Counted from the stretch's first letter, positions 802 to 21,582 are shown. The stretch is 32,000 nucleotides of DNA from an uncultured Opitutales bacterium (GCA_934660865.1 CAKUIA010000003.1:89703-121702), one strand, 5' to 3'. Numbers and translations are program-made. Notes: a model not told the origin generated them from the letters alone.

Positions 802-1634
802 ATGCACTATGGCTATATGAAAAATTTTTGTTTTGCAGTAGTTGCAGTGTTTTTTAGCGCAGTTTCGTTTGCGCAAATTCGCGTACATTCGCATAGGGGC
901 GAAAGCGACTTTGCCCCGCAAAATACGGTAGAGGCAATAAAACTTGCCTACGATATGGGCAGCGAAATGATAGAAACCGACTTTTGGCTTACCAAAGAGG
1001 GCACTTTTGTTTGCGTGCACACCCAAAAAGAGCTTAAGCAATTTTGGGGCATAGACAAAAGCCCGGAACTGCTTACAAATGAAGAAATCAAGAATGCGCG
1101 TTTGGTAAACCCCTCGGCTTACGACAAAAAATACGCAAACTGCAAATTGCCAACATTAAAGGACGTGCTGGCTGTAATACCCAAAAACAGGAGTTTCGAG
1201 CTTGAAATAAAACACTACGGCAAAGATTTTGCCGACAAGGTTGAAGCTGGCGCATAGAGGCGGGGCTTGATTATTGGAATATTTTAATAACCTGTTTCGA
1301 CCCCGCTGTAATTAGGGATTTTAAGCAGAAATATCCCGAATATAAAACGCAGCTTATAATAAGCTATAACCCGAAAACCGACACAATAAACAACTTGGTG
1401 CGCCGCGCAAAGCATGCCGAGGCTTCCGAAATTGCCATAGGCAACTACCGCAAAATAGACGCCGCCTACGTTAAGCGCCTGCACGACGAAGGCTTTAAAG
1501 TTGGTTTTTGGCAGGTGGAAAATTTAAACGACCTGGCCTACGCCGCCAAATTGGGTGCAGACCGCGTTTGTTCCAACCACGCCTACCGCCTGCGCGAAGA
1601 CTTTAAACTAATAAAATCGCTAGATTTTAAGTAA
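802..1634 (+). pseudogene. glycerophosphodiester phosphodiesterase (GDPD family), interrupted by a frameshift
   Basis: N-terminal ORF 802-1257 has a signal peptide and the GDPD motif HSHRGES..APQNT..A..MGSEMIETDFWLTKEG..VCVH. My translation of the other frame from 1245 gives ...GLDYWNILITCFDPAVIRDFKQKYPE...GFKVGFWQVEN...GADRVCSNHA, the middle and C-terminus of the same family. The frames switch at about 1243-1256 (TAG at 1255-1257 in the first frame, TGA at 1242-1244 in the second). Confidence 0.75.
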
Positions 1635-1650: not shown

Positions 1651-2649
1651 TTAGTTGAAAAACTTTTCGGCTTCAAAGCGCGAGATGTTGCGCATATTTA
1701 TGTAGCGGCTTTTTAAAAGCATTTGGTTGCTGTGCCCCATATTTAGCTGCAGGCGCGGCAGGTCTTTAAAACGCTTTGCAAAAAAGCTGGCGTAGGTGTG
1801 GCGCAAAACGTCTTGCACCCAGCAGCCGCCAAAGCCCGAGTTGTTGCGTATTTTTTGCCAACGGCGCTGCCAGTTTACAGGGCATATCTTTTGCTGGGGT
1901 TTAGGGTTATAGCTTAGTAAAATGCGCTTTAGTTGCGGCATAATTTCTACTTGGCGCACCCCGCCTGTTTTGGAACACAGCGAGCGCACCGTTATTGTGT
2001 TTTCCTGCAAATCAATATCTTGCCAAGTTAAACGCCTAACTTCGCGCGGGCGAATACCCGCAAAGACCAACAGGGCAACGGCAGGCAAATATATGCCGTT
2101 GTTCTCTTTTTTTGCATTGGCTATAATCTTTTTAATTTCAAACAGCTTTAGTGGCAAAATTTCTTTTTCTATTACCTTTTTTCTTAAAATTTGCTTAATG
2201 GGGTTTTTGTCGCACCACTCGCGCCTTAGGGCAAATTCAAACAACCCGTGCAGCATAGCGCGCCCTTTGTTGTATTGGCTTGGGGTGTTAAACGCGCAAT
2301 TTAGCCACTCTTCGCATTCCGATACACTAAGCTCCGAAAAATTGCGCTTTGCAAATTCGGGTTTAAATTTCATCAACTTGTTGCCCAAATATTTAATGTC
2401 GCTAAACGAAGCTTTGCGCAAATCTTGCTTAGTCTGCAAATAAATATCAAAACCTTTGGCGATAGGCATTTCGTTTTGCCTAAAGTTATTTTTGCCAAAT
2501 TCAATTACTTTGGCGCAAAACTGAAGGGTAGTAAGTTTGGATTTTTTTGGCATAAAATCTGCAATATTGCAAATAAGCCTAGCTGCGTCTAAAATGCTAA
2601 TGTTTTTGCCCTTTAAAAGAGCCATCGCCGATATCAATTCTTTGTTCAT
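1651..2649 (-). CDS. tyrosine site-specific recombinase (phage integrase family)
   Basis: 332 aa. Box I-like AGIRPREVRRLTWQDIDL. Box II-like VLRHTYASFF...LQLNMGHSNQMLLKSRYINM, giving the R..H-x-x-R..H..Y catalytic pattern. The start codon overlaps the left inverted repeat. Confidence 0.9.
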   Translation of the reverse strand: MNKELISAMALLKGKNISILDAARLICNIADFMPKKSKLTTLQFCAKVIEFGKNNFRQNEMPIAKGFDIYLQTKQDLRKASFSDIKYLGNKLMKFKPEFAKRNFSELSVSECEEWLNCAFNTPSQYNKGRAMLHGLFEFALRREWCDKNPIKQILRKKVIEKEILPLKLFEIKKIIANAKKENNGIYLPAVALLVFAGIRPREVRRLTWQDIDLQENTITVRSLCSKTGGVRQVEIMPQLKRILLSYNPKPQQKICPVNWQRRWQKIRNNSGFGGCWVQDVLRHTYASFFAKRFKDLPRLQLNMGHSNQMLLKSRYINMRNISRFEAEKFFN

Positions 2650-2666
2650 GGTATTTAGAATACCAT
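2648..2666. repeat. left inverted repeat ATGGTATTTAGAATACCAT (candidate recombinase core site)
   Basis: Exact reverse complement of 2826-2844 (19/19). Internally palindromic arms ATGGTATT/AATACCAT sit around an asymmetric centre. Confidence 0.9.
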
Positions 2667-2825
2667 TGTCAACCCATTTATTCTAATAATAGCTCGAAAA
2701 TCTTTATTGCACATAAACTTTTTTGATTATGGCAAATTTTAACAATGCAAAAGTTTGGCGTATACGTTTTATTTGCATATTGTTAACATCTTAATTTTCA
2801 TATTGTTGATGATGGATACGCTGTT

Positions 2826-2844
2826 ATGGTATTCTAAATACCAT
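2826..2844. repeat. right inverted repeat ATGGTATTCTAAATACCAT (candidate recombinase core site)
   Basis: Exact reverse complement of 2648-2666. Lies 57 nt upstream of the ATG at 2902. Confidence 0.9.
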
Positions 2845-2901
2845 ACTCCTTTATTAGTAAAATCTATATGATTTTGTTTAACAAAAAACAATAAAGGAAA
2901 A

Positions 2902-3585
2902 ATGAAAGCTATAAGTATCAAAAAAATGTCCAAGGCGCTGTGCCTGTTGGCAACGGTGTTTTTAACCGCATATTTATCGGGTTGCGCAAGCGACGGCAGA
3001 AACCAAAAATATGTTCCCTGGAATATGGAAACATCTACTCCCGTAGTCGAACCCGAAATATCCAGCGTTCAAACCAAAATGTCCAAAAAATCAAACTATT
3101 GGTCGTTCCTGTATTTGTTCGGCGTATACGAAGTAGACGAAAAATATGCGGGTTTTGACATACTGTATTTCCTGGATTTTACAAAAAACTACAATATCAA
3201 CAATGTTGCCTACGAAAACGAAGGCTCTATACTCGACTTCGATTTTATTCCCTCGCGCAGCAACCGCCTAAAGAAATTGACTCTCGGCGAAATGGCAATG
3301 AAATCGCGTTCGGATATAATTATGTCTCCCATGTACAAAGTTGAATCTAACGACTGGTTCTTGTTCCAAAGCTCCGACTGCAAGGCATCGTGCTACGGCG
3401 GAAGGCTTCACGGCTTTAAGGTTAAAGGACAAGGTTATAAAGACGCTTTAATGCCGTCGGACAAGCCCGTTAACACTCCCATTTTGGTAAAGGGCAACAA
3501 TTCCTCCAATTCCACCTCTACATCGTCGGACACAATGTCGGTGGTAAAAGACAGCGTAGGCGCGGTGGTAAATAGCGTTTTATAG
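2902..3585 (+). CDS. hypothetical lipoprotein
   Basis: 227 aa. Signal peptide ending in the canonical lipobox LSGC (..TAYLSGCASDG). RBS AAAGGA upstream of the ATG. Ser/Thr/Asn-rich C-terminus. No family recognised. Confidence 0.8.
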   Translation: MKAISIKKMSKALCLLATVFLTAYLSGCASDGRNQKYVPWNMETSTPVVEPEISSVQTKMSKKSNYWSFLYLFGVYEVDEKYAGFDILYFLDFTKNYNINNVAYENEGSILDFDFIPSRSNRLKKLTLGEMAMKSRSDIIMSPMYKVESNDWFLFQSSDCKASCYGGRLHGFKVKGQGYKDALMPSDKPVNTPILVKGNNSSNSTSTSSDTMSVVKDSVGAVVNSVL

Positions 3586-3610
3586 TCTGTAAAGTAAAAG
3601 CAAAAAACAA

Positions 3611-3646
3611 AAGACGGCATATTAAATATGCCGTCTTTCTTTTTTT
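3611..3646. terminator. rho-independent terminator, bidirectional, between convergent genes
   Basis: Perfect 12-bp stem AAGACGGCATAT/ATATGCCGTCTT with a 3-nt loop, followed by TCTTTTTTT. An A-run lies upstream for the opposite strand. Confidence 0.7.
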
Positions 3647-21510: not shown

Positions 21511-21582
21511 GTTCCCATAGTTTAATGGATAAAACGGCGGTCTCCGGAACCGCAGATCTGGGTTCGATTCCCAGCGGGAACG
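21511..21582 (+). tRNA. tRNA-Arg (anticodon CCG)
   Basis: Hand-folded cloverleaf. Acceptor GTTCCCA/CGGGAAC with one A-C mismatch at 7-66. D stem GTTT/AAAC. Anticodon stem GCGGT/ACCGC with loop CTCCGGA. T arm CTGGG-TTCGATT-CCCAG. CCA is not encoded. Confidence 0.8.

Follow-up and report, generated by a model that had tools for sequence, protein, structure and literature searches.

A candidate invertible segment between a tyrosine recombinase gene and a lipoprotein gene in an uncultured gut Opitutales bacterium

What do two exact inverted repeats accomplish when they lie between a tyrosine recombinase gene and a lipoprotein gene? This question is raised by a locus of an uncultured Opitutales bacterium, contained in a 32,000-nucleotide (nt) stretch of DNA (GCA_934660865.1 CAKUIA010000003.1:89703-121702) that we refer to as the window. 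The initial annotation of the window had read the repeats as inverted core sites of a tyrosine recombinase and had predicted inversion of the DNA between them. We found support for this prediction in the recurrence of the same architecture around related recombinases, in the co-variation of the sites, and in a paralogous element present in both orientations. We therefore consider, with a probability of about 0.8, that the element is an inverton.

The recombinase-proximal core site (2648–2666, ATGGTATTTAGAATACCAT; ATGGTAT-TTAGA-ATACCAT on the plus strand) and the cargo-proximal core site (2826–2844, ATGGTATTCTAAATACCAT; ATGGTAT-TCTAA-ATACCAT on the plus strand) are 19 nt long each and reverse complementary at 19 of 19 positions. 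They bound a putative invertible segment of 159 nt (2667–2825), the window-type inner cassette, which is AT-rich (GC ~0.31). These features had been noticed from the start and are confirmed here. The two sites are also the only ones of their kind in the window: a search for ATGGTATN5ATACCAT with up to two mismatches returned two sites in the 32 kb, both belonging to the pair, for a chance expectation of 0.05. None of 100 shuffles gave this two-site outcome, and the looser pattern ATNGTATN5ATACNAT retrieved the same two sites from the window and no others. In each site, palindromic arms of 7 nt (ATGGTAT/ATACCAT) enclose an asymmetric centre of 5 nt, TTAGA in one copy and TCTAA in the other. The initial annotation had recognized palindromic arms and an asymmetric centre, but its 6+7+6 split describes the sites less well than this 7+5+7 layout. 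The centre is the sole feature that distinguishes an inverted from a direct arrangement of the two copies. As first described, the left site lies on the start codon of the recombinase gene (CAT, 2647–2649), which it overlaps by 2 nt, and 57 nt separate the end of the right site from the ATG of the lipoprotein open reading frame (ORF; 2902–3585, plus strand).

This arrangement is a property of the whole recombinase family. In every member examined, a cargo gene is followed by a site, a segment of 131–162 nt, an inverted site and the recombinase gene, and the architecture recurs from 94% down to 33% recombinase identity. The sites themselves differ among members (they are given below as proximal/distal, a lower-case letter marking a departure from the palindrome). 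In the class with 80–94% identity (L006, L007, L025, L040, and L041), they are the window's own 19-mers, and an identical site lies at the recombinase start codon. L008 and L029 (65%) carry tTCGTAT-TTATA-ATACGAT/ATCGTAT-TATAA-ATACGAc, and L009, L026, L027, and L028 carry ATCGTAT-TTTAA/TTAAA-ATACGAT. L031, with ATAGTAT-TTCAA/TTGAA-ATACTAT, is an orphan element of another genome: no recombinase gene is found nearby, and its inverted repeats flank a 146-nt segment upstream of a gene for a lipoprotein 72% identical to that of the window. In the Akkermansia branch, L012 and L017 (Akkermansia sp., 33–34%) have AGCATTC-C/G-GAATGCT, L032 has CAGCATT-ATG/CAT-AATGCTG, and L033 and L034 have TACAGCATT-CTT/AAG-AATGCTGTA. 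The third base of the half-site varies jointly on both arms (G/C, C/G, or A/T), which is the signature of a dimer-binding palindrome evolving with its protein. All eight site classes combine an asymmetric centre with two inverted copies. This constant inversion argues against operators, for which it would have no reason. In the Opitutales members, the start codon of the recombinase gene overlaps the proximal site. A single genome can have the same 19-mers at more than one locus, as L006 and L007 on one contig show. Homology between paralogs is limited to a GTTGACA motif at the segment end, the site and the recombinase ORF, and it stops at the stop codon (L006 3977–4999 corresponds to window 2673–1651).

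Inversion could be read directly at a paralogous locus. L028 (sample ERZ27286970) and L027/L009 (Hadza samples) represent the same locus: their flanking sequences agree at 100% of positions over 2,325 and 3,516 nt, and the 193-nt element with both sites lies in opposite orientations, again at 100% identity. As the 19-nt repeats are shorter than the assembler k-mer, each orientation must be supported by reads, which excludes an assembly artefact. Half-site markers locate the exchange: between L026 (ATCGTAT-TTAAA-ATACtAT ... tTCGTAT-TTTAA-ATACGAT) and L009 (ATCGTAT-TTAAA-ATACGAa ... ATaGTAT-TTTAA-ATACGAT), the inner half-sites moved with the segment and the outer half-sites stayed. The crossover thus took place within the site centre, as expected of a tyrosine recombinase. 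L009 and L026 are 86.5% identical in nucleotide sequence over the segment and 78% over the recombinase gene, and this better conservation indicates that the segment carries a function. At the locus found in both orientations, the cargo gene (L027 1338–2288) encodes 316 aa with a weak match to a TIR-like family (PF10137, E=1e-3) that falls below the cut-off; it is followed by a gene for a very large protein, ~1,889 aa long, that contains internal repeats (1–1336).

The differences among strains at the window's own locus fall exactly at the sites, which indicates that these were recombination-active in the history of the locus. L024 is a copy of this locus (identities of 98.5% on the lipoprotein side and 95% on the recombinase side) with a precise 178-bp deletion that comprises the 159-nt segment and one site. 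At the junction, ...AAAGGAGT is joined straight to a single ATGGTATTCTAAATACCAT, followed by GAACAAAG... This deletion is real, as the junction k-mers are absent from the window-type genome. Either the 7-nt arms, as direct repeats, or action of the recombinase on a "wrong" alignment of the near-palindromic sites may have given rise to it. The single site left between the lipoprotein and recombinase genes (L024 1700–1740) makes this a naturally locked variant. The 491-kb scaffold L040 has the same flanking genes and is homologous to the window up to 2825 and again from 2673. The inner segment is of the L006/L007 type, 145–148 nt long and unrelated to that of the window, a precise replacement whose junction is shared by L030 and L042. 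We considered that the L006/L007 segment might be the window segment in flipped orientation and rejected this, since no similarity was detected in either orientation (z<1); the two are unrelated cassettes. The recombinase gene of L040 (4364–5363) is frameshifted and called as two ORFs of 137 and 201 aa, with the sites and inner segment kept; the distal site of L040 has a G-to-T change (ATTGTAT). Contigs L005, L025, L030, and L042 break inside the segment or at, or within a few nt of, the cargo-proximal site.

The presumed invertase is a 332-aa tyrosine recombinase encoded on the minus strand (1651–2649). Its ORF is intact, as the initial annotation had stated, and its product matches PF00589 (47.0 bits for a cut-off of 27.1, E=3.2e-12) and a PHROG integrase family (E=5.9e-32). 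Residues R200, K227, R283, H306, and Y316 are invariant in 24 homologs. According to an alignment to XerA, the histidine of the HxxR motif is replaced in these homologs by an invariant aspartate, Asp280 (codon ~1810–1812), whereas the nucleophile and both arginines are kept. The Akkermansia branch likewise has an aspartate ("DALRH" in the translated L012 ORF). In a profile search against PDB sequences, the closest relatives of solved structure were XerA (5hxy, E=2e-9), Tn1549 Int, IntI4, and XerD, all distant; the AlphaFold model, with a mean predicted local distance difference test score of 58.8, was too poor for a fold search. The NCBIfam scan (E<=0.01) gave weak Xer- and IntI-type matches only, with no FimB/FimE or Bacteroides invertase model among them. 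The Xer scores ranged from 31 to 55 bits for cut-offs of 220–335 (XerA, 55 vs. 220), and the integron integrase model TIGR02249 scored 27.3 bits for a cut-off of 265.

The family is large. The reference metagenome-assembled genome (MAG) encodes at least four full-length paralogs (L006–L009) in addition to 3' fragments (L014 and L015). A protein search (E<=1e-10) returned 1,286 recombinase clusters, many of them on short broken contigs, and a search seeded with an Akkermansia member (34% identity) returned more than 1,000 further clusters. The named clusters of the latter search were only "tyrosine-type recombinase/integrase" or "hypothetical protein" of Akkermansia sp. Relatives of the window recombinase come from human-gut Opitutales (phylum Verrucomicrobiota), in Hadza and other gut metagenomes, which assigns the window to this order; a metagenome scan with the recombinase as query yielded only fragments and distant matches. 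What remains of a recombinase paralog in each of the two 3' fragments of the reference MAG (L014 3806–4276 and L015 3808–4276) is no more than its final ~79 codons, with 82–83% identity. Upstream of both lies a common sequence of ~195 nt, 94% identical between the loci, in which the hairpin TTTCACACGAACCCGTGTGAAA occurs. This sequence may belong to the end of another repeat or mobile element, by which the gene would have been truncated.

What might the inversion switch? The main argument for a promoter is one of space. The distal site is 12–57 nt from the start codon of the cargo gene in eight locus types; longer gaps occur in two loci, L033 (80 nt) and L032 (128 nt), both of the Akkermansia branch. 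With the recombinase start codon lying on the other site in the Opitutales members, little or no room is left for independent promoters, so that transcription must originate in, or cross, the segment. The first gene past the distal site points toward the element in 10 of 10 locus types. Several of these genes encode surface proteins, such as PEP-CTERM/pentapeptide proteins.

The promoter itself is harder to designate. The initial annotation had proposed a weak rightward promoter, TTGGCG-17-TATTGT; this sequence is present, but it matches the consensus at 8 of 12 positions, below the threshold of our scan and no better than chance. The same annotation had found no strong canonical promoter in either orientation, and we agree: promoter-like matches to the sigma-70 consensus on both strands of the region were no more frequent than in shuffled sequence. 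Another candidate is a split promoter toward the lipoprotein gene, TTGATG-N18-TATTCT (2805–2834, plus strand), with its −35 in the segment and its −10, TGG-TATTCT, in the site. It also matches at 8 of 12 positions and is statistically no different from the AT-rich background. The Opitutales sites all read outward as TGG-TATTCT (or TATTTT), with a TTGnnn 16–18 nt upstream in the segment. A split promoter at 2805–2834, with a fixed −10 and an invertible −35, is a hypothesis only.

A second conserved feature of the segment is the polar element GTTGACA (2667–2673, minus strand), which occupies its recombinase-proximal end. It stands beside the proximal site in three unrelated Opitutales inner types, and TTGACG or TTGAC is found there in Akkermansia-type loci. 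The element sits at one end of the segment only, is kept across 33% recombinase identity, and is on the cargo side in the flipped L009/L027; it therefore travels with the segment. We tried GTTGACA as a −35 box and rejected it, as no −10 lies 16–18 nt downstream on either flank and as L033 has the element in mirror image on either side of the proximal site. GTTGACA is more likely a protein-binding extension of the site that biases the direction of recombination. In fimS, sequences inside the element beside one inverted repeat bias the direction of inversion by FimE, a possible parallel.

These observations lead to a model in which the recombinase would bind as dimers to the two 19-bp sites, and strand exchange within their asymmetric 5-bp centres would invert the 159-bp segment. 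Transcription of the lipoprotein gene, and probably that of the recombinase gene, would start in or pass through this segment. Its orientation would then set the expression of the lipoprotein, resulting in phase variation of a surface protein. The flipping of the window copy is predicted by homology with the paralogous locus, and we infer that the adjacent recombinase acts on the window sites and that a promoter is what the inversion switches.

A more elaborate version of this model is speculative, and we regard it as possible but doubtful. The element would be a self-coupled toggle with a split promoter: each site would provide an outward −10 (TGG-TATTCT), the segment would supply GTTGACA and TTGnnn as −35 or accessory ends, and one flip would reassign transcription between recombinase and cargo. 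Loci with identical sites would form a trans-acting network exchanging inner "promoter cassettes", a natural recombinase-mediated cassette exchange. The same family would possibly provide the invertase of the Akkermansia invertons.

The cargo gene of the window (2902–3585, plus strand) is monocistronic and encodes a predicted lipoprotein of 227 aa. The lipobox (LSGC) and the ribosome-binding site (AAAGGA) are both readable in the sequence, in agreement with the initial annotation. The lipoprotein has no match in Pfam, NCBIfam, or PHROG, and its homologs form six clusters only. A bidirectional intrinsic terminator (3610–3638), with a 13- to 14-bp stem and T-runs on both strands, separates the gene from the convergent hpf. 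The slot between hpf and the recombinase gene (window 2845–3636, compared with L035, L037, L039, and L041 3400–6366) is hypervariable, while the hpf protein is identical. Depending on the strain, the slot contains the lipoprotein gene, a pentapeptide-repeat gene accompanied by an element of its own (L041), or, in L035, L037, and L039, unrelated genes. In strains with a different cargo, the sequence ceases to be homologous to the window at the hpf terminator (3633–3636). The recombinase side is syntenic across strains, with genes for a glycerophosphodiester phosphodiesterase (GDPD) and a Cache sensor.

Other contents of the slot include a set of genes for proteins of 585, 118, and 334 aa, and a gene for a 773-aa HSP70-like protein with a dynamin-like GTPase. 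In the reference MAG (L007 1597–3782), what lies before the orthologous recombinase/inverton is an 87-aa ORF, a radical-SAM enzyme of 369 aa (PF04055 and Fer4_12), and a 178-aa Cys-rich peptide full of CxxxC repeats. This set looks like a cluster of the type that specifies ribosomally synthesized and post-translationally modified peptides, apparently placed under an invertible switch. Relative to L002, a 1-nt deletion near 1249 breaks the GDPD gene beside the recombinase gene (window 802–1634) into two ORFs (GAAGCTG-GCGC vs. GAAGCCGCGCGC). The gene is intact in L002 (272 aa) and also split in L003 and L004; the split form is a pseudogene or a shared sequencing error.

Several observations weigh against an active inverton in the window. 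We compared the orientation of the segment in the assemblies of the window, L002/L036, L003/L038, L001/L004, L007, L025, L040, and L041 and in the partial contigs L030 and L042. The flipped form was found in none of these ~10 independent assemblies, and GTTGACA was always on the recombinase side. The search of related genomes advocated by the initial annotation thus revealed both orientations at the paralogous locus but not at the window's own. The frameshift of L040 and the loss of the segment in L024 indicate that some copies at this locus are decaying or locked. The aspartate in place of the canonical HxxR histidine is found across the recombinase family, whose activity is putative, and no strong promoter was detected on either strand of the segment in the sigma-70 consensus scan. 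Some of these points would suit palindromes that serve as operators of a dimeric DNA-binding protein, possibly the recombinase itself as a mere autorepressor, in a fixed, fossil switch. The near-perfect palindromic sites, one of them over the recombinase start codon, the single orientation in all ~10 assemblies, and the frameshifted L040 recombinase would be accounted for. However, operators do not explain the inverted asymmetric centres of all eight site classes, the inversion of the paralog, or the deletion and replacement that end exactly at the sites. A fossil is also at odds with an intact window recombinase that has all the catalytic residues invariant in the family. We consider this explanation quite improbable.

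The sites could also be mainly a hotspot of cassette exchange or rearrangement, as in integrons or shufflons, with promoter inversion not being the selected function. One and the same slot, from GDPD and the recombinase gene to hpf, indeed houses a window-type inner segment, an unrelated one of 145–148 nt, or none. Its cargo is a lipoprotein, a pentapeptide protein, or a radical-SAM cluster, with breakpoints at the sites or at GTTGACA, and a single genome can carry the same 19-mers at more than one locus (L006 and L007). Yet cassette exchange alone does not require the paired, inverted layout with a spacing of 131–162 nt that all members keep, and a simple inversion in otherwise identical sequence is seen directly between L028 and L027/L009. 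Furthermore, cargo replacement has a breakpoint at the hpf terminator and not at a site, which fits ordinary homologous recombination through conserved flanks. An integron is further contradicted by the IntI score (27 vs. 265 bits) and by the sequence around the sites: no attC-like elements turned up, although no dedicated attC search was made, the window yielded no repeated site motif other than the inverted pair, and an ordinary terminator closes the cargo side. Exchange as the primary function is therefore unlikely. Finally, the recombinase might serve a mobile element as its integrase, in which case the repeats would be att sites or the ends of the element. A multi-copy family, many short broken contigs, a PHROG integrase match, and variable neighbours are what such an element would produce. 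We rejected this reading, which we judge highly improbable: homology between paralogs ends at the recombinase stop codon without element-like flanks, neither att features nor direct repeats were found, the nearest tRNA gene is at 21511, and the recombinase side is syntenic across strains (GDPD and Cache sensor). An inverton remains the explanation that we favour.

How does such an inverton compare with known systems? In Proteus mirabilis mrpI/mrp and Escherichia coli fimB/fimE-fimS, a tyrosine recombinase gene lies beside a short promoter segment flanked by inverted repeats that controls a surface structure. As at the window locus, the recombinase gene of mrp is divergent from its cargo. There is no specific sequence relationship with these systems, the NCBIfam matches being only weak and of Xer/IntI type. 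The window repeats are 19-bp near-palindromes, compared with simple repeats of 9–21 bp in fim and mrp. Here, one of the sites reaches into the start codon of the recombinase gene, and the family has many copies with interchangeable inner segments. The Bacteroides invertases, also encoded locally by a gut commensal, flip promoters of surface-protein operons, as proposed for the window; the window recombinase has no NCBIfam match to their models. The logic of fimS/FimBE and of the Bacteroides Tsr switches, invoked by the initial annotation, hence holds as an analogy, but the recombinase falls outside the FimB/FimE and Bacteroides invertase families of NCBIfam. The closest relatives are Xer proteins (XerA and XerC/D), Tn1549 Int, and integron integrases, which share the same core-site plan of palindromic arms and a short asymmetric centre. 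The window family differs from Xer/dif by scores below the cut-offs, by multiple paralogs per genome, and by paired inverted sites instead of a single dif or att site.

Invertons are well documented and numerous in Verrucomicrobiota (PMC10028968, PMC13343947, PMC11892184). The intergenic ones reach 5.55 per genome in Verrucomicrobia, the highest figure reported (PMC10028968). In Akkermansia, one inverton, the cps1 switch, controls the capsule and the colonisation of the gut (PMC13343947). One reported Akkermansia inverton has 17-nt inverted repeats and a 157-nt segment, and the class is enriched near PEP-CTERM proteins; a "group 138" of Akkermansia invertons is described in the same study (PMC11892184). 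Akkermansia invertons resemble the window element, with which they share phylum and gut habitat, in their dimensions (17/157 vs. 19/159), palindromic half-sites, intergenic position upstream of surface proteins, and many copies per genome. Their inverted-repeat motif differs: the one quoted for A. muciniphila in PMC13343947 from Jiang et al. (2019) is CGGATT..AATCCG, and that of the window is ATGGTAT-N5-ATACCAT. The Akkermansia-branch relatives of the recombinase have GCATT-type half-sites, similar in form to the published motif but not identical. No recombinase is named for the Akkermansia invertons in the studies consulted, whereas the elements of the window family each adjoin their own recombinase gene. 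Invertases near invertons are generally oriented beyond the regulation of the inverton (PMC11892184); here, in contrast, the 5' end of the recombinase gene abuts the element. What is new is therefore the link between a Verrucomicrobial inverton, a recombinase family, and a site motif; invertons were already known in Akkermansia.

The co-variation of recombinase and site offers a testable enzyme-site code for phase variation in the most inverton-rich gut phylum. The module is compact, with 19-bp sites, a segment of ~150 bp, and a 332-aa enzyme, and might be turned into a genetic tool. The locus further hints at cassette exchange and at a recombinase self-coupled to its own switch. For the bacterium itself, an orphan lipoprotein of a human-gut Opitutales is very probably phase-variable and is encoded in a hypervariable surface-protein slot.

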